Shown in pieces: positions 19,864-63,127 of a stretch of DNA of 64,000 nt. Numbering within the stretch: the stretch's first letter is position 1; every line of letters starts with the position of its first letter. This stretch comes from an uncultured Bryobacteraceae bacterium. GTDB taxonomy: Bacteria > Acidobacteriota > Terriglobia > Bryobacterales > Bryobacteraceae. The translations under genes were made by a program, and so were the position numbers. A model generated the notes under the pieces. That model had not been told where the DNA came from. It did no database searches and saw only the letters and a list, made by a program, of their open reading frames with translations. Location of the stretch: positions 41,631 to 105,630 of the forward strand of contig CAXTYH010000005.1 of NCBI GenBank assembly GCA_964248405.1. Direction: 5' to 3'.

Positions 19864-20613
19864 ATGAAGTATGCGAAGGTCGCGCGCAGTGGCTCCTGGA
19901 AACTTGTCTTCTCCCTCTCTCTGCTTTTGTCGGCAGCACTGGGCCAGGCTCCACCGCACCCCCAGCTTACGGTTGCCGTCTATGATGTCGCAGGCATTGG
20001 CCCAAAAACTCTGGAGCGCAGCGAGCGAATCGTCGAAGCGATCCTGTTAGCTTCGGGTTTGCAACCGAAATGGATCGCCGGCCCGCCTGCCGAACTCGAC
20101 AGCATAGGCACCGATTTCACGGCCCGAACTCCGCGCGAATGCCTGGCTGCGCCGATCCCATCCATTCTGCGGGTACAAATTCTGCGCCACGCGCCGCCTG
20201 GTATGAGCCCCCAGGCACTCGGATTCTCATTACCTTGTGCAAGAGCAGGTGTTCAGGTGACGATATACGCCGATCGGGCGGCCCTTGCCTGCAAAACCGG
20301 AGGGCCGACATTCGGTCGCGTGCTGGCATATTCGATCGCACACGAGTTGGGGCACGTGTTGCTGCACTCCTATCATCATGAGACGAATGGACTAATGAAA
20401 GCTGTCTGGTCTAAAAGCGATTGGCAGCGCGCGGCGGTCACCGATATTCCATTTAGTCCGGTTGACGTGCAGCGGATCGCCGCATTTTACGCGGGAACGG
20501 CCAATTGTAGTGACTTTGAAGAGCCCGCGGCCCGAACAAAAAACCCTGGGAAAGCCGCTAAGCCGTCCCGGGCACTTGCTTCCTTGGCGACTACTTGGGC
20601 TGAACAACCGTAA
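19864..20613 (+). CDS. secreted hypothetical protein with an HExxH zinc-protease-like motif
   Basis: 249 aa. Signal peptide (LVFSLSLLLSAALGQA). AHELGHVLLH is the only recognisable motif. Confidence 0.55.
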   Translation: MKYAKVARSGSWKLVFSLSLLLSAALGQAPPHPQLTVAVYDVAGIGPKTLERSERIVEAILLASGLQPKWIAGPPAELDSIGTDFTARTPRECLAAPIPSILRVQILRHAPPGMSPQALGFSLPCARAGVQVTIYADRAALACKTGGPTFGRVLAYSIAHELGHVLLHSYHHETNGLMKAVWSKSDWQRAAVTDIPFSPVDVQRIAAFYAGTANCSDFEEPAARTKNPGKAAKPSRALASLATTWAEQP

Positions 20614-20701
20614 AGTTAGTCCTACCTCCCGCGAGAAGGCTCAATAAAACCGGCTTACCCTCTTTTTGCACCACAACGGTGCTGGCCCACTCCCGAACCT
20701 T

Positions 20702-22204
20702 CTACTCGGAAGCGACCTCTCCTTTCGGCTTGCCATCCTTCCTGACTGGACCCCAGAAGACGCTGCAATCGCGGATGTCCTGGTGATTGGGAAACAACTC
20801 GGCCAGCTTCATATCCTCAATCCGTTCGTCCTTACAGCTCTCCACGGTAGCGAAGCGGCCTTGCTTCACCTGCTCATTGAGCTCCGATTCTGAAATGACA
20901 TGGTAGAGAGCTTCCTGCTTGGGCGGCAGGTCGAGCTTGTGCGAGTAAGAGAACTCCATAGCAGGCGGCGGCTTGCGATGCAGAAGGAAGTAGACCTGTT
21001 CGTCGGCATAGATCAACCCACCGGGCCGAGTGACTTCCTTTACCTTGGCTGCGATCTCCTCGTAGTGGCTCCAGCGGGTAGACTCGCGATCATCGAATAT
21101 GCTCTTGGCGATCGACAGGAGCATCAGCGCGCAAACAACTCCGGCAGGCCAGGCGGGCCGCAGCGGACTGACCAGTCGGGATCCTACTTCGTACAGGCCG
21201 ACGGCGGCCAGTCCTCCACAGAAAGGAAGCGCCACGATAAAGTAGCGCTGGAAGGTGGGATGGGCGGTAGCAATGTAGAGGATCAGTGCAGCTGCGATTG
21301 CACCACTCAAATAGAACTCGCCCCGGCTTTGCCGATCCCACGGTTGGTTCCTGCGAAGGAAGATCAATCCCGCAATGGCCAGACCGCCGAGGATCAGGGC
21401 TGGGGCCGAATCGAGCCACGCGAGAAGTGCGTCAACATCGTGGCTGGTGGCGCCTGCCCATTTCACCCGCCGGAAAATAGCCTGATACTGCATAACATTA
21501 AACAGGGTCTGAGCCGGGCCTTTGGCGAACAGAATTAACACGGGGATAAAGGGGAAAACGCAGCCGGCCAGGAAGGCAGCGCTCTTGGTTCCGCGCTTTC
21601 CCATCACGTTATAAAGAAGCAGCCAGCCTAAAAGAATCGGGACAACCGGCGCGGTCAGTAAGGTGGAGGCCGCAGCCGCGCTCCCTAACAGTCCAGCGAA
21701 AAACGCCCACGCTGCTGAAGGTCTTCGCACCGCCACCAGCATCACTCGAAATGCGGCTACGGTGAGGAATAACGCTATCGCATAAGACTGTCCTATCGGT
21801 CCGAACGTCACCAGAATATCGTTGAATCCGATAAGGCTCAAGGTGGCCAGCGCACAGGGGAGCTGCCAGGCAGGAACGGGGAATCTGGTCAGGATAAAGT
21901 CTGCCATCAGCCAGACAGCACCTGCTATCTCAAGCGCCGCCGCCACATGCGTGGGCCGCCATCCCTGGCCGAAGACGTGCATCCAAAGCGCGTTCCAGTA
22001 AGCGTTCAGCGGTGTCTGCGGAAAGCAGAAATCGATGTAAGGTGTTCTGCCGTCGTCGATCAACTGAGCTGCCAGCAAGTGAAAGCCTTCATCCCACACA
22101 AACGCCATCGTCTGCGAATACAGCAGCAGGGCAGCGGTAAACGCGGCTGTCACCAGAGCAAGGATGAGCCGGGGCGAACGGCGGGGTAAAGCAGAAAGGT
22201 TCAC
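20702..22204 (-). CDS. GT-C fold glycosyltransferase (ArnT/PMT, GT39/83-like)
   Basis: 500 aa with 10 or more TM helices. The first loop carries the acidic DE motif (FVWDEGFHL). Soluble C-terminal ~110 aa. Confidence 0.8.
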   Translation of the reverse strand: MNLSALPRRSPRLILALVTAAFTAALLLYSQTMAFVWDEGFHLLAAQLIDDGRTPYIDFCFPQTPLNAYWNALWMHVFGQGWRPTHVAAALEIAGAVWLMADFILTRFPVPAWQLPCALATLSLIGFNDILVTFGPIGQSYAIALFLTVAAFRVMLVAVRRPSAAWAFFAGLLGSAAAASTLLTAPVVPILLGWLLLYNVMGKRGTKSAAFLAGCVFPFIPVLILFAKGPAQTLFNVMQYQAIFRRVKWAGATSHDVDALLAWLDSAPALILGGLAIAGLIFLRRNQPWDRQSRGEFYLSGAIAAALILYIATAHPTFQRYFIVALPFCGGLAAVGLYEVGSRLVSPLRPAWPAGVVCALMLLSIAKSIFDDRESTRWSHYEEIAAKVKEVTRPGGLIYADEQVYFLLHRKPPPAMEFSYSHKLDLPPKQEALYHVISESELNEQVKQGRFATVESCKDERIEDMKLAELFPNHQDIRDCSVFWGPVRKDGKPKGEVASE

Positions 22205-25816: not shown

Positions 25817-27379
25817 TTGAAGGACATGGCAAACGTGGTCCAATTTCGCCGTTCAACAGCAGTTTTGACGCTGGTGGCGGCTTCTATCGGCGGTGGATTA
25901 ATAGCAGCTTTGACTGTTGCCACCCACAACAATGCGCCTGTGGCGGTGACGGCCCGGGCCGACAGCAGCGCCAGCACGCAGCGGTTAAGCAGCTTGTCGA
26001 ACTCGTTCGCCGACATGATCGAGAAAGCCTCGCCGGCGGTGGTGAAAATCAGCTCCACGCGCGTCATCAAGGCCTCTGAGCAGCAAGGGGGCGGAAACAA
26101 CCCCATGATGCAGGATCCGTTTTTCCAGCGCTTCTTCGGTGGCCAGGGCGGAGCGCAGCCGCGTGACCAGCGTGAGCGTGGCCTCGGTTCCGGCGTCATC
26201 ATCTCCAACGACGGCTACATTCTGACCAACAATCACGTGATCGATAAAGCGACCCTACTAAAGGTTGAATTGTCAGATGGTCGGGTTTTTACGGCTAAGC
26301 TTATTGGTGCTGATCCGCAAACCGACGTAGCAGTAGTGAAGATTCCGGCGTCGGGTCTGCCAACTCTCAGCTACGCCAACTCTGATGCGGCACGGGTGGG
26401 TGATCTCTGCTTTGCAATCGGCAACCCCTTCGGTCAGGACCATACGGTCACGATGGGTATTGTGAGCGCCAAGGGCAGAACGCTGGAGCGTGGAACCTAC
26501 TTGCAGAACTTCATCCAGACGGATGCGGCGATCAACCCCGGCAACTCTGGCGGTGCCTTAATTAACGCCAGTGGTGAGCTGATTGGCATGAATACGGCGA
26601 TCATTGCTGGTGGCGGCAGTTCGGCTTTCGGCGGCGAAGCGGGCAATGTCGGAATCGGATTTGCTGTGCCTTCGAACATGGCCAAGCAGGTTTCCGATCA
26701 ACTGCTGCACGGCGGAAAGATTTCACGCGGCTACATGGGCGTGACGCTCGGCAACGTAACGGAAGACAAGGCGCCTTTCTTCGGGTTGAAAGACACGAAG
26801 GGTACCATTGTCGGCGACATCACTCCGAATGGCCCAGGCGCCAAGGCGGGGCTGCAGTCGGGTGACGTGATCACTGCGATTGATGGCAAAAAGGTTGACG
26901 GACCAGACGATTTGACGATGGACGTTATTTCAAAGGCGCCGGGTACGACGGTCACGCTTGATGTGATGCGTAACAGCCAGCCAACGAAAGTGAAGGTAAC
27001 GCTCGGTCAGCGACCAGGGGCGGTTGACTTCGATAAGCCCAAGAATGGCGACAATGACGGAACCAAAGACGGCGACGACAATGGTCCGACGGCGGGTGCC
27101 TCGGCACGCGGCATCACCGTCGAGCCTCTAACGCCTGAGATTGCTCAACAGGTGAAAGCATCAGCTAATACGCATGGTGTTGTTGTCACCGATGTTGATC
27201 AGAGTGGTCCTGCTGCTGACGCGGCGGCGAAGGGTATGGTGATCACAGCCGTAGATCGCAAGCCGGTCAATACGCCTGCTGACTTTAAGCGCCTGATGGC
27301 ACAAGCGGAAGGTAAGCCGGTACTGCTGACGGTTCTCGCGGGAGGTATGACCAACTTCACAGTTGTTCAGCCCAAGTAG
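25817..27379 (+). CDS. htrA: periplasmic serine endoprotease DegP/HtrA (Do family), two PDZ domains
   Basis: 520 aa. Trypsin-like triad context (TNNHV ... GNSGGALIN) and two PDZ regions. TTG 25817 or ATG 25826 as start. Confidence 0.93.
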   Translation: MKDMANVVQFRRSTAVLTLVAASIGGGLIAALTVATHNNAPVAVTARADSSASTQRLSSLSNSFADMIEKASPAVVKISSTRVIKASEQQGGGNNPMMQDPFFQRFFGGQGGAQPRDQRERGLGSGVIISNDGYILTNNHVIDKATLLKVELSDGRVFTAKLIGADPQTDVAVVKIPASGLPTLSYANSDAARVGDLCFAIGNPFGQDHTVTMGIVSAKGRTLERGTYLQNFIQTDAAINPGNSGGALINASGELIGMNTAIIAGGGSSAFGGEAGNVGIGFAVPSNMAKQVSDQLLHGGKISRGYMGVTLGNVTEDKAPFFGLKDTKGTIVGDITPNGPGAKAGLQSGDVITAIDGKKVDGPDDLTMDVISKAPGTTVTLDVMRNSQPTKVKVTLGQRPGAVDFDKPKNGDNDGTKDGDDNGPTAGASARGITVEPLTPEIAQQVKASANTHGVVVTDVDQSGPAADAAAKGMVITAVDRKPVNTPADFKRLMAQAEGKPVLLTVLAGGMTNFTVVQPK

Positions 27380-27432
27380 TTCAGTAAGCTAGCAAGTCGC
27401 CCGGGATTGGCTGATCGGCCTTCCCGGGCTTT
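27345..27432 (+). repeat. direct repeat copy 1 (last 35 nt of htrA + terminator stem)
   Basis: gtatgaccaacttcacagttgttcagcccaagtagttcagtaagctagcaagtcgcccgggattggctgatcggccttcccgggcttt recurs at 27662-27748 with 2 substitutions and 1 single-nt indel. Confidence 0.95.
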
Positions 27433-27435
27433 TTC
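27399..27435 (+). terminator. Rho-independent terminator of htrA
   Basis: gcccggga (27399-27406) pairs with tcccgggc (27422-27429) and is followed by ttttt (27430-27434). Confidence 0.7.
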
Positions 27436-27472
27436 GTTTGGGGCCGAGCGCTATCCGAAAGGCTTTCGCATA

Positions 27473-27515
27473 GGGCGGTTTAGGCGGTTTAGGGCAGTTT
27501 ATAGGGGTTTAGGGG
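27473..27515 (+). repeat. degenerate short tandem repeat (C/G)GGTTTAGG(G), 4 copies, with a fifth at 27573-27580
   Basis: gggcggtttaggcggtttagggcagtttataggggtttagggg, read directly. Confidence 0.85.
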
Positions 27516-27654
27516 CAGACGGAGTGAATATCTGAGGAGTATAGCCTTGAGTCTAGACCTCAGATATTCGAGGGGTTTAGGGACAGACGGAGTGAATATC
27601 TGAGGAGTATAGCCTTGAGTCTAGACCTCAGATATTCACTCCGTCTGTCCCTAA
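27506..27654 (+). repeat. two tandem 67-bp units; the second is extended to complete a long palindrome
   Basis: ggtttaggg(g/a)cagacggagtgaatatctgaggagtatagccttgagtctagacctcagatattc occurs at 27506-27572 and 27573-27637, with one mismatch. Confidence 0.95.
27577..27654. repeat. perfect inverted repeat: 29-nt arms, 20-nt loop (78-nt hairpin)
   Basis: ttagggacagacggagtgaatatctgagg (27577-27605) is the exact reverse complement of cctcagatattcactccgtctgtccctaa (27626-27654). Confidence 0.95.
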
Positions 27655-27661
27655 CGTTCCT

Positions 27662-27748
27662 GTATGACCAACTTCACAGTTGTTCAACCCAAGTAGTTCA
27701 GTAAGGTAGCAGTCGCCCGGGATTGGCTGATCGGCCTTCCCGGGCTTT
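27662..27748 (+). repeat. direct repeat copy 2 (orphan copy of the htrA 3' end + terminator stem, T-tract lost)
   Basis: See copy 1. It retains a 10-codon remnant MTNFTVVQPK-stop and the gcccggga/tcccgggc stem, but is followed by ctttagg rather than a T-run. Confidence 0.95.
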
Positions 27749-27853
27749 AGGAACGCCGAATTCAACGTGCTCCAAGGCGGTAGGATCCTATATGATCCCT
27801 GCCCCCTGTGCGCCCGTACGGAGCTGTTCTGCCCAGTTAAGCTGATGGCTCAT

Positions 27854-29083
27854 CTAGCCAAAGTTCTGGGTCAGCAGCGCCGCTCCGGCAACACCTTTTA
27901 CGCCTTTGCCGGCAAGGATCGACAGCATTTCGTCAGGGAAAGAGGCGCAGTGTTCGAGCGCCCGTGAACAGGTTTGGATCGCCTTAACCAAATGGCCTTC
28001 ACCGAACAGCATTTGATCCTTGCCTGCCAAGCCGATAGCAAGCGCTCTGGTCAGCCCGAAGCAGGAACTGAGTAGAAGATACTCGTCCGCAATAGAGTGC
28101 CGGAAAGGGAACAAGGTGCGGTAGGCGTAGGCCACCAAGTAATGCTCGAAGATGTATTCGTGTTCTTCGACAAACGGAGCGAAGTAGCGGTCATGCGCCT
28201 CGCCGTAACGGATGGCCAGCTCGGGGATGGTTGAGTCACCTTGCATTCCAAGACCGACGGTGAAATCGCCGTAAACATCTCGAAAGCGCGGCGCAGTGTA
28301 GTCCGCTTTCATCCGTGCGACAACCAGTTCCAGCACAACCGCGAGTTGAGAGGCAGCATTAGCCTTCAGCTGGTTCAAATGCTGGTCAAACAATTGGGCA
28401 TCCATCGCCAACCGAAAAAGTTCCAGAGCTTCCGGAATCTGTTGTTGCTGTCCGCTCTCGGTTAAGGCGTGCAGCTTTTCACATAGGAACCCGACCAGCA
28501 GCAAGCGCTTTTCGACTTTGAAGCGCCGATTCTGAAAGACTTGCAAAACACATTCACGCACTGGCCTTGCATATTGGGTCAGATTCAGTTGCCCTTGAGC
28601 TCCCCTCCGATCCCGTGCAATTTGGAGTAGCCGCTCCTCCATAAGGCCATTACCGCTGACTGATTGCAGATCGTCAGGCTCCGGATTCAGTAGCGCGACC
28701 CTCGCTGCTTCTGGGCAGGAGAGATCCAGCGACCGTTCCCAAATACCATCAGCTGCGTTGACAATCCGTGGGTATGTGGCGCAAGTGCGGCTCAGATACT
28801 CTTCGCCCAAATCAGCTTGCACACTGCACAACCCATCGCGGATCAACGAGCAACCGTCTCCCTGCATGGCAAGCCTCGCATAGTCGTTAATCTGGCCGGG
28901 AGACTGAATAGTAACCAACTGCGTGAGCTTCGGTCCTAGTGCTGGATGAGTGAATTGCTGGTATCGCTCGAATGTTTCGCGGTCGACACTGATGCCCCAA
29001 CCGCTGCAGCAGGTATCCTCGCAGGCTGCCCCGATGCAATGGAAATCAGAGTAGTAAGTGGGCTGAAGCCACAGGGTTTCCAA
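27854..29083 (-). CDS. FliB-like Cys-rich lysine-N-methylase family protein
   Basis: 409 aa. The N-terminus FHCIGAACEDTCCSGWGISVDRETFERY and GDGCSLIRDGLCSVQADLGEEYLSRTCATYPR closely parallel, from memory, Salmonella FliB (FSCSGSACRDHCCKGWKITLDK...; GNCPYLDEDRLCRVQKTLGAKALSHTCSSFPR). Confidence 0.7.
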   Translation of the reverse strand: METLWLQPTYYSDFHCIGAACEDTCCSGWGISVDRETFERYQQFTHPALGPKLTQLVTIQSPGQINDYARLAMQGDGCSLIRDGLCSVQADLGEEYLSRTCATYPRIVNAADGIWERSLDLSCPEAARVALLNPEPDDLQSVSGNGLMEERLLQIARDRRGAQGQLNLTQYARPVRECVLQVFQNRRFKVEKRLLLVGFLCEKLHALTESGQQQQIPEALELFRLAMDAQLFDQHLNQLKANAASQLAVVLELVVARMKADYTAPRFRDVYGDFTVGLGMQGDSTIPELAIRYGEAHDRYFAPFVEEHEYIFEHYLVAYAYRTLFPFRHSIADEYLLLSSCFGLTRALAIGLAGKDQMLFGEGHLVKAIQTCSRALEHCASFPDEMLSILAGKGVKGVAGAALLTQNFG

Positions 29084-45173: not shown

Positions 45174-45801
45174 CTAGAGCGTTTCCCCCCGCGTCCAGAT
45201 CAACATGGCATCGAAGTCAAATGCGGAAACCAGGATCACGTCAGTAGTTTCGGCAATCTGCTCGAGCGCACTCTGATCGAGTGTTTCACTTTCGGGCGGA
45301 GCAAAGCATCCTACTACGCCCATCAGGCCGGACGCGGGAAGTACGTTCTGAAACGCATCACGCCACGTCTCTTCGGAAAGATTCGGGCCCTGCAATGATT
45401 CGTACCACTCAATGTTCTCAATGCCCTTCGAACGGTGATACGTGAGTGGACGCTGATAGATGCGCCACCGCGCCGCTGACATGGAAGTTTGAGTCGGGCT
45501 GGACTGTATCTCGATATAGTAACGCCGCTCTTCCTTCCTTGTTTACAATTCCTCTTAGTACCTCGCATTCCCGTGCGCGATACTCAGCGTCAACCCGATC
45601 TTCGGCATGACGCTGCAATGTATTCAGCCCAAGTTTGAAGTGCATCAAATCCCACGAGCTCGCATAAGGGGGCACGAATGCAATTACCCGCCCCGCTTCC
45701 AGCGGCAACTGGCAAGGAGCGTTTCCCAACGTTGTGCCACGGGAGATTTGCAGCCGCACATAGGCTTTTGCGGCGCAACCAAGTTCTCCTTTTTGATACA
45801 T
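45174..45801 (-). pseudogene. paralog A of an unknown ~210-aa protein family, split by a +1 frameshift
   Basis: ORF 45418..45801 (N-half) and ORF 45174..45482 (C-half) together align along the whole intact 218-aa protein at 46134..46790. Relative to the copy at 46941, catgtcagcggcgcggtggcgcatc carries one extra nucleotide versus catgtcagcagcgctgggcgcata. Confidence 0.6.
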
Positions 45802-46940: not shown

Positions 46941-47294
46941 TCACAGCGTTTCCCCCCGCGTCCAAATCAATGTGGCATCGCGGTCGAATGCGGAGACGAG
47001 GATCACGTCAGTGGTTTCAGCGATCTGTTCGAGCGCACTCTGATCGAGTGTTTCACTTTCGGGCGGAGCAAAGCATCCTACTACGCCCATGAGTCCAGAA
47101 GCCGGGAGTACATTCTGGAGCGCATCACGCCACGTCTCTTCAGAAAGATTGGGCCCATGTAATAGTTGGTACCACTCAATTCTTACAACGCCCTTCGAAC
47201 GGTGGTACGTGATTGGATTCTGATATATGCGCCCAGCGCTGCTGACATGAAAGTCTCCGCTGCTCAATCTCTTCCACCATCTGAAGCGCCTCAT
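46941..47294 (-). CDS. 5'-truncated copy of paralog A (C-terminal domain only) fused to unrelated upstream sequence
   Basis: 117-aa ORF. From DFHVSSAGRIYQNPITYHRSKG onward it matches the C-half of paralog A (about 85% nt identity by eye). Nothing upstream resembles the family N-half. Whether it is expressed is unknown. Confidence 0.45.
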   Translation of the reverse strand: MRRFRWWKRLSSGDFHVSSAGRIYQNPITYHRSKGVVRIEWYQLLHGPNLSEETWRDALQNVLPASGLMGVVGCFAPPESETLDQSALEQIAETTDVILVSAFDRDATLIWTRGETL

Positions 47295-59421: not shown

Positions 59422-59610
59422 AAGGTAGACTGCTCGGTGATTCTCGGACCTCCGTAACTGGGCCACTGCACTGCGATCCGTTGAATCGCGTCCCGCAATT
59501 GCATGTCGGCATCGCACCTCGGAGCAGCATTCTCGTCCAGGCGATAGTCTGAGTCATAGAGGGGCGTCAACATCCAGTGAAGCTCTCTGCAAGGGAAAAA
59601 CGCTGGCCGG

Positions 59611-60324
59611 TCAGACCCGGGGCGGAGTAGTAATCACGATAGCGCGCGCCGGCGCATCCGAGCGGCCGTGGTAGGAGTGTGCCTGAGACGAATCAAAGTA
59701 GACGCTATCGCCAGTCTCCAGCAGATGCTCTTCACCTTGGTACTGAATAGAGACGGCTCCCGTTAAGACGTGGATAAACTCAGAGCCGTCATGTGCATGC
59801 TCACGCGCCGAGTTGCTGTCCTGCGGAAAGTCTGCCAGATAGGCGGACATGTTCTTATCAATCGCGCCGTAGGCAAGAACTTCAAAGAAGTAGCCAGGGC
59901 AGGGCTCATCGGCGAACTCTGGGAATCGCAGGCGCTCCCCGGCTCGGGTAATCGCAAACACACGTTTGGGTCGCTTTTCACCGAAGAAGAACTCGAGCCC
60001 GACATCGAACACCATCGCGATCCGCGCCAGCGTTGGCAGAGTCGGGATCAGCTTTCCGTTCTCCAGTTGTGAGAGCATGGAAGCCGAGAGCCCAGTATGC
60101 CTGCCCAGGTCTACGAGCGCTATTTTTTTGCGCAGGCGAAGCTGTCGGAGCTTACTGCCGATATCGTAGCTGATCAGCACTCGGCGAATCATCTCCTCGC
60201 TGTGTTCAGCGGCCCGCAACTTCCTTTCATCAACGGTAACATCAGCTCCCAGAATTTCGCTCCTGCTGAGACCATCTTCAGGCGTAGTTACCAAATTGGT
60301 TTGATCCAGCATGAAGTCGTTCAT
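59611..60324 (-). CDS. XRE-family HTH + cupin domain transcriptional regulator (intact copy)
   Basis: 237 aa. IGSKLRQLRLRKKIALVDLGRHTGLSASMLSQLENGK (HTH_3), then a cupin (HAHDGSEFIHVLTGAVSIQYQGEEHLLETGDSVYFDSSQAHSY). Confidence 0.88.
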   Translation of the reverse strand: MNDFMLDQTNLVTTPEDGLSRSEILGADVTVDERKLRAAEHSEEMIRRVLISYDIGSKLRQLRLRKKIALVDLGRHTGLSASMLSQLENGKLIPTLPTLARIAMVFDVGLEFFFGEKRPKRVFAITRAGERLRFPEFADEPCPGYFFEVLAYGAIDKNMSAYLADFPQDSNSAREHAHDGSEFIHVLTGAVSIQYQGEEHLLETGDSVYFDSSQAHSYHGRSDAPARAIVITTPPRV

Positions 60325-60338
60325 AGAGGCTTAATTGG

Positions 60339-60640
60339 ATGGATTCCCAAGCCCGGCGACGGATGCAAAACCCGTACCGAAGTGAAGTGTCGGATGACTC
60401 TCTGGTAGAGCTTTGCAAGCTCGGGGATCAGACCGCATTTAGTGAATTGATGCGCCGGCATCACTCAGCAGCTCTGAAGGTTGCACTATTGATTGTTCGA
60501 GATAAGTCAGATGCTGAGGACGAGGTTCAAAATGCATTCTGGAAGCATTTGACCATATCGGTCAGTTCAGAAGTAGCGCAAGTGCTTGCCCAGGAGATTC
60601 GCAAGACGCCGCCGCGAAAAGCCGCTTTCGAGTTCCGCGA
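60339..60640 (+). pseudogene. decayed copy of the ECF sigma factor gene at 62489
   Basis: The first ~215 nt are near-identical to 62489 onward. Then come a 1-nt deletion (ggaaagc to ggaagc), a ~182-nt deletion between gttca repeats and a ~88-nt deletion between gccgccgc repeats. Regions 2.2 to 4 are lost. Confidence 0.8.
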
Positions 60641-60776
60641 AGATGTCTCCAATCAGCTTTTTTTTGAGAGTGACTCAACCCGCGCGGGCAGAGGAGCCAG
60701 ACGACCATCATCTTCGGCCTCCTGATCAAGCTCAACGACTAACACTAATCAGCGTTGCGTGGGATCACTCGCGGAT

Positions 60777-61373
60777 TCATGGCTTTGTTGCCTCACCATC
60801 TTTTACTCCGAAGTCAGGAACTCCGCCGCCTTGGCTTACTCGTACTGTCCCTATGCTGCGAGGCGTTCCAAGAATCACCGGGGATTCCCATATGACATCA
60901 ACTTCAAAATTTTCAACAAGCGCATCGCGACCCACAAATCTAGGCTCGCTTTCGAACTTCTGAATTTTTACTCTGTAATATCGGAAGTCCCTCCAAGACT
61001 GTTCGGTCCAATCGAAAAAATCCACTAAAGTCACCTTTAGGTCACCCAAAGTGAAGCGTCCGTCAAATGCCTCCCAACATTCTCCTGGTTGATTGTCAAA
61101 CCCGACATCAATACGCAGGGAAGAAAATCGTGCGTTGGAGCCGCGTCCAAGATTAGGTACAACGTGATACTCCTCTCCAAAAATATGGCCGGAATGCCCT
61201 ATTTCCGGTGCTAACCTGTCTAAAACTAACGCGTTAAAAAGCGGGAGCTTAAGCGTGTTGAACTGATCTGCCAACTCGGCATCTTTTTCCTCCCGCGAAC
61301 CCCAAAAATAAATGTTCCAAATGTCACGTAGTGCGAGGCGGTATTGCTGGACTATATCGGAAGCATAGGTCAT
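60777..61373 (-). CDS. orphan 198-aa protein, no recognisable domain (intact copy)
   Basis: Uninterrupted ORF with protein-like composition. Its duplicate at 61589..62184 differs by scattered substitutions plus one frameshift. Confidence 0.65.
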   Translation of the reverse strand: MTYASDIVQQYRLALRDIWNIYFWGSREEKDAELADQFNTLKLPLFNALVLDRLAPEIGHSGHIFGEEYHVVPNLGRGSNARFSSLRIDVGFDNQPGECWEAFDGRFTLGDLKVTLVDFFDWTEQSWRDFRYYRVKIQKFESEPRFVGRDALVENFEVDVIWESPVILGTPRSIGTVRVSQGGGVPDFGVKDGEATKP

Positions 61374-61588
61374 AAGTGTTTACCAAATAGCAGGGAGCAA
61401 CTCGTAGTCTGGGCCGGGTTCGCTAAGACCCTCCAAGCCGCCTTCGAGTTCCGCGAAGATCTCTCCAATCAGCTTTTTTGAGAGTGACTCAAACCGCCGG
61501 CAGAGGAGCCAGCAGACCATCATCTTCGGCCTCCTGATCAAGCTCAACGACTAACACTAATCAGCGTTGCGTGGGATCACTCGCGGAT

Positions 61589-62184
61589 TCATGGCTTTGT
61601 TGCCTCACCATCTTTTACTCCGAAGTCAGGAACTCCGCCGCCTTGGCTTACTCGTACTGTCCCTATGCTGCGAGGCGTTCCAAGAATCACCGGGGATTCC
61701 CATATGACATCAACTTCAAAATTTTCAACAAGCGCATCGCGACCCACAAATCTAGGCTCGCTTTCGAACTTCTGAATTCTCACCCGATAATAACGAAAGT
61801 CCCTCCAGGATTGTTCGGTCCAATCGAAAAAGTCCAGCAAAGTCACCTTTAGATCAGCCGGAGCAAAGCCTTCGTTAAATGGCTTCCAGCATTCTCCTGG
61901 TTTATTGTCGAGCCCGACATCAATAAGCACGGAAGAGAATCGTGCCCTGCAGCCGTGTGCAAGGTTAGGTACAACGTGATACTCCTCTCCAAAAATACGG
62001 CCGGAATGCCCTATTTCCGGTGCTAACCTGTCTAAAATAACGCGTTAAAAAGCGGGAGCTTAAGCGTGTTGAACTGATCTGCCAACTCGGCATCTTTTTC
62101 CTCCCGCGAACCCCAAAAATAAATGTTCCAAATGTCGCGTAGTGCGAGGCGGTATTGCTGGACTATATCGGAAGCATAGGTCAT
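61589..62184 (-). pseudogene. frameshifted duplicate of the 198-aa orphan gene
   Basis: Same ATG context (ggtcataagtgt). Loss of one nt in taaaactaac to taaaataa (about 62036) creates TAG after codon ~47. The downstream frame (track ORF 61589..61930) has its last ~70 codons identical to the intact copy. Confidence 0.75.
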
Positions 62185-62265
62185 AAGTGTTACCAAATCC
62201 CAAAGAGCAACTCGTAGTCTGGGCCGGGGTCGCTAAGACCCTCCATGCGATAGGATAGGAAACTG

Positions 62266-62474
62266 CGAGCGCTATGTTCTTGCGCAGGCGAAGCTGCCGG
62301 AGCTTACTGCCGATACGTAGCTGATCAGCACTCGGCGAATCATCTCCTCGCGTGTTCAGCGGCTCGCAACTTCCTTTCATCAACGGTAACATCGGCTTCT
62401 AGAATTTCGCTCCTGCTGAAACCATCTTAAGGCGTAGTTACCAAATTGGTTTGATCCAGCATAAAGTCGTTCAT
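62266..62474 (-). pseudogene. 5' remnant (about 70 codons) of a second copy of the XRE-cupin regulator
   Basis: Aligns to 60114-60324 with indels (gatatcgtagc vs gatacgtagc; ctcgctgtgttc vs ctcgcgtgttc). No HTH or cupin part remains. Confidence 0.75.
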
Positions 62475-62488
62475 AGAGGCTTAATTGG

Positions 62489-63127
62489 ATGGATTCCCAA
62501 GCCCGGCGACGGATGCAAAACCCGTACCGAAGTGAAGTGTCGGATGACTCTCTGGTAGAGCTTTGCAAGCTCGGGGATCAGACCGCATTTAGTGAATTGA
62601 TGCGCCGGCATCACTCAGCAGCTCTGAAGGTTGCGCTATCGATCGTTCGTGATAAGTCAGATGCTGAGGACGAGGTCCAAAATGCATTCTGGAAAGCATT
62701 TGAGCATATAGGTCAGTTCAATAAGGATGCAAAGTTCTCAACCTGGTTAACGCGTATTGTCGTGAATCAATGCTTAATGAAGCTGCGCCGCGCTCGCCGC
62801 GCTCGCTACACCTATATAGATGACATCTTAGTTGGCGAAGAGATTGTCAGCCTGGACTTGCGCGATGCGCGCCAGACTCCTGAACAGGAGTTGGGCCGTT
62901 CAGAAGTGGCGCAAGTGCTTGCTCAGGAGATTCGGAAGACGCCGCCGCTGCTCCGTAGCGTGTTTCTGCTTCGGGACGTGCAGCACCGGCCCATGCCGGA
63001 GGTAGCGCAGACACTGGGCATCTCAGTAGCCGCCGCGAAAAGCCGCCTTTTGAGAGCGCGCGCCGAACTACGCGACCGGATGCGTCGCCACTACGGCGAC
63101 ATCGGTCCGGCTACCTTGATGGCCTAG
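62489..63127 (+). CDS. ECF-type RNA polymerase sigma-70 family factor (intact copy)
   Basis: 212 aa. Region 2 (DAEDEVQNAFWKAFEHIGQF...FSTWLTRIVVNQCL) and region 4 (LRSVFLLRDVQHRPMPEVAQTLGISVAAAKSRLLRAR). Confidence 0.92.
   Translation: MDSQARRRMQNPYRSEVSDDSLVELCKLGDQTAFSELMRRHHSAALKVALSIVRDKSDAEDEVQNAFWKAFEHIGQFNKDAKFSTWLTRIVVNQCLMKLRRARRARYTYIDDILVGEEIVSLDLRDARQTPEQELGRSEVAQVLAQEIRKTPPLLRSVFLLRDVQHRPMPEVAQTLGISVAAAKSRLLRARAELRDRMRRHYGDIGPATLMA

Follow-up and report, generated by a model that had tools for sequence, protein, structure and literature searches.

The stretch of DNA described here (the window; 64,000 nucleotides) is from an uncultured Bryobacteraceae bacterium of the Acidobacteriota (assembly GCA_964248405.1, contig CAXTYH010000005.1, positions 41,631 to 105,630 of the forward strand). 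Its gene htrA, found downstream of clpB, codes for a Do/HtrA-family serine protease (25835..27379, + strand) that features a Pfam Trypsin_2 and two PDZ_2 domains and has 91% identity to its relative P0001. The longest open reading frame (ORF) opens at the TTG at 25817, the GTG at 25835 being the likely start codon; the start of P0001 aligns with codon 7 of this ORF. The end of htrA is followed by a 229-bp insert with no gene inside, which is bracketed by two direct repeats (DR1 and DR2) of the gene 3' end. The insert carries a long perfect hairpin and, outside its arms, short tandem units that are named stutter in the present text.

DR1 (27345..27432, + strand) is the native copy. It comprises the last 35 nt of htrA with its TAG stop codon (27377-27379), followed by a terminator stem-loop whose stem is made of 8 bp, all G+C (27399-27406 paired with 27422-27429), and by 3 T. 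DR2 (27662..27748, + strand) repeats the htrA 3' end and the terminator stem as an additional copy without function. The two copies match at 85 of 88 positions and differ by 2 substitutions and 1 indel of 1 nt. The T-run (TTTTTCGTTT) is found only after DR1, while DR2 is followed instead by AGGAACG. The native post-terminator sequence, composed of the T-run TTCGTTT and then of GGGGCCGAGCGCT (27433..27452, + strand), lies outside the duplication; since it is native, contiguous with DR1 and absent after DR2, DR2 is the extra copy. Homology between the window and two related loci, L001 and L014 (two strains that are ~96% identical), extends through htrA and its terminator up to position 27446, where it ends. 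The gene htrA is thus intact, with its own stop codon and its own T-run terminator, and DR2 is a dead relic.

On the opposite strand of the window (20522..20662, - strand) lies a third and older copy, 79% identical over 145 bp, which takes in the end of htrA with its stop codon and terminator and continues for ~20 nt past them. It matches the window past the terminator to the equivalent of position 27452 and adjoins the stop codon of an unrelated 500-aa ORF (20702-22204) without Pfam match. The end of htrA has been copied at least twice. The three-way alignment of DR1, DR2 and this third copy identifies a G-to-A change as derived in DR2, and a C and an extra A as derived in DR1. Derived changes being found on both DR1 and DR2, each copy has drifted since an old event. 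DR2 splits a 14-bp perfect palindrome, CGTTCCTAGGAACG, right in its middle, with the left half CGTTCCT (27655..27661, + strand) before it and the right half AGGAACG (27749..27755, + strand) after it; the undivided 14-mer folds at -2.5 kcal/mol. This split-palindrome flank is absent at the other four loci with flanking repeats (see below).

The complete hairpin of the insert (27577..27654, no strand assigned) is composed of a left arm (27577-27605), a loop (27606-27625) and a right arm (27626-27654). Its 29-nt arms are 100% complementary and, together with the 20-nt loop, have a DNA fold of -33.5 kcal/mol (z = -10.6). The core 25 nt in each arm, GGGACAGACGGAGTGAATATCTGAG, are the terminal inverted repeat (TIR) of the family of elements described below, which makes of the hairpin a complete TIR dimer. 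The hairpin overlaps the second of two tandem units (27503-27569 and 27571-27637; 67 nt each, 1 mismatch, period 68). Unit 1 (27503..27570, + strand) is a truncated re-copy of the element. It contains a single unit of stutter together with a left arm, here as variant GGGGCAGACGG (27512-27537), and the 20-nt loop, but its right arm is reduced to the inner 12 nt (27558-27569). Its stem is consequently limited to 12 bp, formed by 27526-27537 with 27558-27569.

DR1 and the element are spaced by 38 nt of native DNA and then by 41 nt of stutter. The terminal stutter (27471..27514, + strand) has 4-5 degenerate units, TAGGGC, GGTTTAGGC, GGTTTAGGGCA, GTTTATAGG and GGTTTAGGG, that extend into the first bases of the arm. 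TRF delimits here a degenerate 10-nt array of 4.5 copies (27471-27514). The motif GGTTTAGG is found exactly four times (27477, 27486, 27506, 27574), with 0 further copies in the 64 kb; its mean in shuffled windows is 1.09 and 2 of 100 shuffles reach 4 copies. One of the GGTTTAGG(G) units of the window reads GGTTTAGGGCAG, continuing into the arm. A small imperfect palindrome, GCGCTATCCGAAAGGCTTTCGCATAGGGC (27448..27476, no strand assigned; DNA fold -6.6 kcal/mol, z = -2.35), is positioned between the htrA terminator and the stutter and has no counterpart in L001. The arm sequence is found in none of 100 shuffled windows, and no other arm, even diverged, was detected in the 64-kb window by pattern search or with an nhmmer arm profile. 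An earlier inspection of the letters alone (the sequence-only reading) had reported the duplicated gene end with its stop codon and terminator stem, the four to five degenerate repeats, the two tandem units, the flawless 29+20+29-nt hairpin in the second of them, the 12-bp stem in the first and the non-coding character of the insert; all are present as it described them.

A scan for the arm with the pattern CAGACGGAGTGAATNNCTGAG in one genome per species yielded 12 loci, ten of which are in two metagenome-assembled genomes (MAGs) of Acidobacteria (3 and 7 loci, numbers that are a lower bound as the MAGs are incomplete). The loci L005 (Oscillospiraceae) and L013 (Crocinitomicaceae) are single chance-level matches and were put aside. 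The arm pattern gave 0 matches in viral contigs and a single weak one, L016, which is probably unrelated, in contigs from metagenomes of the Joint Genome Institute (JGI). A blastn search with the element found no match in plasmid and phage collections.

Once the arms are put in register, the TIR of the family is a 25-mer, GGGACAGACGGAGTGAATRYCTGAG. Taken alone, an arm has a fold of -1.2 kcal/mol, and 46 of 200 shuffled sequences do equally well. A single arm does not therefore form a hairpin by itself, and the repeat is a TIR and not a classical repetitive extragenic palindromic (REP) sequence. Beside the arms there are inner sequences of two kinds, one for each subterminal region, left or right, of a full element. 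The window loop (TATAGCC...TCTAGAC) is of the left kind.

The full element is best represented by L004, in which two inverted arms 700 bp apart enclose a 203-aa ORF. Its product matches Pfam Y1_Tnp (1e-14) and passes narrowly the NCBIfam model REP_Tyr_transpos (81 bits for a cut-off of 80), scores far below the cut-off of the NCBIfam IS200 model (23 bits, cut-off 55), and has E. coli TnpA-REP (4ER8) as sole match in the PDB (E = 0.008). The motifs NHVH and YIELNP are readable in its sequence. The closest relative of this transposase is P0121 (89% identical), encoded on a 153-kb contig; L008 carries a copy that is 83% identical to the L004 transposase and L007 a decayed copy between arms. The 25-mer, with variation only at RY (purine or pyrimidine) positions, flanks the transposase ORF in L004 and L008 and the decayed copy in L007. 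The window arms are identical to those of L004 at 24 of 25 positions, the sole difference being at a site that is variable in the consensus. RAYT-like genes flanked by TIRs were described as TIRtrons, and their enzymes as TIRYT, by Di Nocera, De Gregorio & Rocco (2013, BMC Genomics 14:522; PMC3733652). Because the window arms are the same as the TIRs around a Y1 transposase, the insert is assigned as a TIR dimer; on this sequence comparison it appears to be a non-autonomous, REPIN-like dimer derived from an acidobacterial TIRtron. The sequence-only reading had listed a REP-like palindrome or miniature inverted-repeat transposable element (MITE) among its options, and this option is borne out by arms that are the TIRs of a Y1 (RAYT/TIRYT) element present at unrelated loci in related genomes.

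The loci differ in their composition. Dimers are found in L010, L011 and L014, internally deleted elements in L006 and L015, a triple arrangement in L012 and single arms, for example, in L009. The L012 cluster (2500-2819) has three arms in alternating orientation (+, -, +) and resembles a small BIME-type cluster. Note that the stutter sequences on the two sides of its first dimer are reverse-complementary (AGGATA / TATCCT), so that the palindrome reaches 31 nt.

The site past htrA is also occupied in relatives. L001, where the best HtrA match of the protein collection is encoded (91% identity), has a hairpin just past its htrA terminator, and both L001 and L014 have thus a family member at the same post-terminator spot as the window. 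Their arms share GGGACAGACGGAGTGAAT with the window while the loop, its orientation and the stutter units all differ. Recombination between the arms could flip the loop, so that its opposite orientation fits either the ancestral presence of the element or independent insertions. More distant relatives (L002 and L003; HtrA identity of 83% and 80%, respectively) have the terminator followed by other genes, with a single htrA 3' end and no element. The sequence-only reading had proposed that a palindrome unique to this site, with the same structure conserved in relatives, would speak against a mobile element; the arms at other loci and the empty site of the 83% and 80% relatives favour mobility. 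It had also considered a structured small RNA. There is no evidence for this option: the window has no Rfam match at gathering thresholds, the element lies past the htrA terminator and family members are found in either orientation relative to htrA. A sigma-70 promoter scan of 27000-28200 gave no match.

The stutter is a feature of the whole family. Outside almost every arm there are 2-5 tandem units, each 8-14 nt long and with GGG as its last bases; they vary in sequence from copy to copy and often take in the first 3-11 nt of the arm. An example is L006, in which GGGACAG followed by GTCATA is reiterated three times. The same layout is found in TIRYT loci with different TIRs and a protein identity of only 43-48% (L017, L018 and L020; L021 is ambiguous). 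L017 has GGTGAGCGGGGGACGG twice on one side and CCCCAATTG three times on the other, L018 has CCAAATG twice and CCATTTGGGGGCT twice, and L020 has GGCAATCGRGGTCAG three times and CGAAAGCCCC six times. Element ends are also re-copied in part, as in L006 with a 49-nt re-copy of its own right end (100% identical). In L014, a partial copy of the element with an internal deletion is found at 1155-1188, past the extra repeat, where CCTTAGGGACAGACG is joined to the CAGTCTA of the loop. This locus has therefore the appearance of a tandem of two element-plus-repeat units, one of which has decayed. Two other identities of the stutter were considered and rejected. A hairpin telomere or telomere-like TTTAGGG repeats do not agree with a repeat unit that differs at every family copy and whose sequence carries therefore no meaning, and iterons for a Rep protein do not agree with units that vary among copies presumably served by one transposase.

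When the two 600-bp flanks of every element are compared with each other, direct repeats of the local DNA are seen to bracket five of seven non-autonomous copies, with 90-98% identity and E values of 1e-6 to 1e-110. They measure 88 bp in the window (85/88 matches), 23 bp in L014 (22/23), 34 bp in L011 (32/34), 213 bp in L015 (208/213) and 135 bp in L010 (~90%), and the repeats of the five loci are mutually unrelated in sequence. As controls, 425 random positions were tested by the same comparison; 11 reach E<1e-5, of which 8 fall on the L010 or L015 elements and 3 on an unrelated repeat at 60-62 kb. The extra copy in L014 is identical to the native copy of L001 and the repeat was therefore exact when made. 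Both repeat copies abut the element, stutter included, in L011, L014 and L015, and do not in the window or in L010. The source of the L010 repeat is inside a 373-aa ORF, 507 bp from the element, and its copy abuts the right-hand stutter. The rule that fits all five loci is that one end of the element is joined to a directly oriented copy of DNA from its other side.

Some details of the repeat borders can be added. In three of the five loci a GGCC starts early in the flanking repeat, at its position 4 twice and at 8 once, for a background of ~6 per kb (a post hoc observation; the positions noted with it are L011 7646, L010 2792, L015 1284 and window 27662). The extra copies open with GTAT in the window, GTAG in L010 and (GA)GTAC in L015. 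Such GGCC and GTA starts, noticed post hoc, might reflect a preferred start site. Four of the five differences between the L015 copies (1284-1496 and 1762-1974) are within the first 45 nt, which are the element-touching end in the extra copy and a coding part of a gene in the native copy.

The sequences show what the arms are, how they are linked to a transposase, that stutter and flanking duplications are found across the family and which htrA end is native; an interpretation of the locus can be built on these observations. The reading preferred here, to which a probability of about 0.6 is given, is that the insert is a TIRtron-derived non-autonomous TIR dimer whose stutter, unit 1 and DR2 are by-products of end processing. 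The window dimer, which retains both arms and, between them, ~20 nt from the left subterminal region, would move only with a TIRYT provided in trans. A 3' end would arise at the element boundary, either through the transposase during insertion or through breakage of the hairpin followed by repair. A polymerase would then extend this 3' end with template switches, copying the element first and nearby upstream DNA next, and would finally rejoin the downstream flank, leaving behind a templated copy-choice patch. The GGTTTAGG(G) stutter would correspond to the reiteration of a few flanking bases and of the first bases of the arm, unit 1 (67 nt) to a partial re-copy of the left half of the element, and DR2 to the patch copied from the other side of the element and set directly against its right end. 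Mobilisation in trans and template switching as the origin of the duplication are what we infer from the layout. A broader and more tentative proposal, held to be possible but rather doubtful, is that when TIRYT/RAYT-type Y1 transposases act on hairpin dimers, their insertion signature would consist of long local duplications of variable length (23-213 bp) and of stutter at either terminus; such insertion might proceed through nick-primed copy-choice synthesis and not through clean single-strand cut-and-paste.

Several points weigh against this interpretation. A tblastn search found no transposase gene in the 64-kb window, and a cognate TIRYT in this organism is putative. HUH/Y1 elements are generally reported without target duplication (PMC2817692). 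L006 and L012 have no long flanking repeat, and the three transposase-carrying copies, full-length or decayed, have none within ~600 bp to 2.7 kb (the L008 contig stops ~750 bp past its single arm). The non-autonomous copies are only seven, from three genomes of which two are MAGs. DR1 and DR2 each carry some of the differences that separate them, which points to an old event that may not have coincided with the insertion, and junction microhomology is not demonstrable at the borders of DR2.

The age of the duplication is also what an error of host replication alone would account for, in which stalling at the hairpin or its cutting by a nuclease led to slippage or repair long after insertion and without any role of the transposase. 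The very stable hairpin, the element ends that are partially re-copied in tandem in the window as well as in L006 and L014, and the older htrA-end copy at 20522-20662, which indicates that this stretch had been copied before, are all compatible with such a process. However, the stutter is also present at full-length elements with arms ~700 bp apart and no tight hairpin (L004, L017, L018, L020), and it starts exactly at the arm boundary in every lineage, pointing to an end-specific process; a purely host-driven origin is thus regarded as unlikely, while deserving to be kept in mind. The abutment of both repeat copies on the element in L011, L014 and L015 suggests another origin, a classical target-site duplication with staggered cuts 88 bp apart and gap filling, as in IS1634/IS1549 (8-514 bp), which provide a bacterial precedent for long and variable insertion repeats (PMC2266710). 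It accounts poorly for the window, where DR1 is followed by the native sequence 27433-27452 and beyond that is absent after DR2, and for L010, whose repeat source is within a gene and 507 bp from the element. Moreover, the precedent has a DDE enzyme and not an HUH/Y1 one; the substrates of Y1 enzymes are single strands, and staggered cuts of double strands are not known from them (PMC2817692). A templated patch is preferred to a plain target-site duplication because of the lack of 27433-27452 after DR2 and of the distance of the L010 source, and the latter origin is considered improbable.

An 88-bp repeat that rebuilds the 3' end of a gene has the usual look of site-specific integration, and the sequence-only reading had accordingly suggested attL/attR sites, or the scar of an excised element, for an integrative element that targeted the htrA 3' end and later lost its cargo. 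Thirty ORFs between ~9 and 63 kb were tested (ORFs of at least 220 aa from 8-43 kb, minus a few short or overlapping ones, and 7 of the 19 with at least 180 aa from 43-64 kb). Pfam matches were obtained for 23, and none of the thirty codes for an integrase, a recombinase, a transposase or a reverse transcriptase; the tRNA/tmRNA scan of the window was also negative. What lies between the repeats is a complete member of a family linked to a transposase, whose other copies have repeats that differ in sequence and length (23-213 bp), one of them taken from within a gene. The att proposal is thereby left with very little probability. The same search bears on the idea that DR2 came from RNA, the 3' end of the htrA transcript having been copied into DNA by RNA-templated repair or reverse transcription and placed at a break beside the element. 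That DR2 stops exactly at the terminator stem plus 3 T, as a trimmed transcript would, and sits at the centre of the 14-bp palindrome agrees with this idea, but no reverse transcriptase was found among the window ORFs tested, and the duplications of L015 (gene 5' end and upstream DNA) and L014 (post-terminator) are not 3' ends of transcripts, which renders it hardly credible. A diversity-generating retroelement was rejected as well, since the differences between the repeats (G/A, C/G and a 1-nt indel) are not confined to adenines, the repeat spans the stop codon and the terminator, and the ORFs tested include no reverse transcriptase. Finally, DR1 and DR2 are slightly different and related contigs break within the stutter (L001 ends there), as would be seen if strain variants of a single htrA 3' end had been misjoined through the repeat during assembly. 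Against such an artefact stand the same layout at five unrelated loci from three genomes, the distinct flanks of each copy and the fact that a false join via the hairpin would yield inverted and not direct copies; it is thus highly unlikely. The TIR dimer with by-products of end processing remains the preferred reading of the locus.

The window contains further repeats that are unrelated to the element. The region 60111-62948, near a cupin/helix-turn-helix (HTH) gene and a gene for an extracytoplasmic function (ECF)-type sigma factor, features complex direct repeats (60619-61438 and 61435-62248, 820 bp, 93% identity; 60111-60569 and 62263-62720, 460 bp, 95% identity; a 51-bp piece is repeated too), and no long hairpin is found at their joins. 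A direct repeat of 311 bp with 86% identity (45178-45488 and 46945-47254) is positioned near a HEAT-repeat gene. A segment of 112 bp with 85% identity is shared between the window (59435-59546) and L008 (206-317), their contexts being otherwise unrelated.

The htrA insert is thus best described as a selfish repeat and not as remains of a prophage or genomic island, and its annotation as an att site or a small RNA is unwarranted. To our knowledge, the spread of REPIN-like elements was never directly observed. If the duplications and stutter were indeed the signature of TIRYT/RAYT insertion, they would be the first sequence footprint bearing on this spread, and long local duplications with stutter, if upheld in complete genomes, would favour a replicative template-switching step. 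The mechanism of REPIN mobilisation was identified as the key gap (PMC3337134). The signature is a lead and not a result, given the small sample of seven copies from three genomes. The class of elements has been known since 2013, and the duplication signature, from only seven copies, is the sole part that may be new.

Elements with related enzymes or related footprints differ from the htrA insert in several aspects. The IS200/IS605 elements share the superfamily (Pfam Y1_Tnp) and have ends recognised as single-strand structures; in contrast to the present family they have no TIRs and no larger target duplications (PMC2817692). IS1634/IS1549 generate long direct repeats of local DNA with a variable length (8-514 bp), for which there is no mechanistic model (PMC2266710), but they are large and autonomous, have a DDE transposase and their repeats are true target duplications abutting both ends. 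Replitron-1 of Chlamydomonas, an HUH Rep transposon (Craig 2022/2023), features terminal short direct repeats, "fuzzy" ends and variable-length target duplications that were called non-canonical for HUH. It is eukaryotic, however, with a Rep-class enzyme, no hairpin dimer and short duplications. A mechanistic analogy, and only that, is provided by adeno-associated virus (AAV) at AAVS1, where an HUH nickase (Rep) acts on a hairpin-ended genome and a partial duplication of the target locus is left behind. Its integration is thought to combine nick-primed synthesis with template switching; AAV is a eukaryotic virus and its Rep has a helicase domain.

The closest resemblance is to the bacterial REPIN/RAYT systems and to TIRtrons. 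REPINs (Bertels & Rainey 2011, PMC3116915; PMC3337134) are also non-autonomous hairpins made of two inverted repeats and a short spacer, tied to a single HUH/Y1 transposase gene that bears the same flanking repeats. A classical REP unit is an imperfect palindrome of 20-40 nt with a GTAG (or CGTC) tag at one end. REPINs differ from the present family in that its arm is no palindrome alone, the GTAG tag is absent at both arm ends, and the copy number is of 3 and 7 loci per MAG whereas REPINs reach tens to hundreds. Neither flanking duplication nor stutter is mentioned for REPINs or TIRtrons in the cited papers (PMC3116915, PMC3337134, PMC3733652). TIRtrons have TIRs of ~25 nt that start with a G-run and carry the motif GGGGWSAS at their outer end, they include a sharply defined group in Acidobacteria, and gene-free TIR repeats are known too, whether single, as dimers or in groups (PMC3733652; see also PMC6006769). 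The motif is matched by GGGGACAG in L001/L014 and inexactly in the window by GGGACAGA and GGGGCAGA, with three G in aGGGACAG and a C at the W position of GGGGCAGA; L017 and L018 have GGGGACGG at this position. The difference is that most dimers of the present family have long flanking duplications and stutter, target duplications or direct repeats being unmentioned in the text of PMC3733652 as searched. The likeness extends to the gene of L004, a RAYT-like Y1/HUH transposase gene flanked by ~25-nt TIRs, and to the window hairpin, which has the organization of a TIR dimer.

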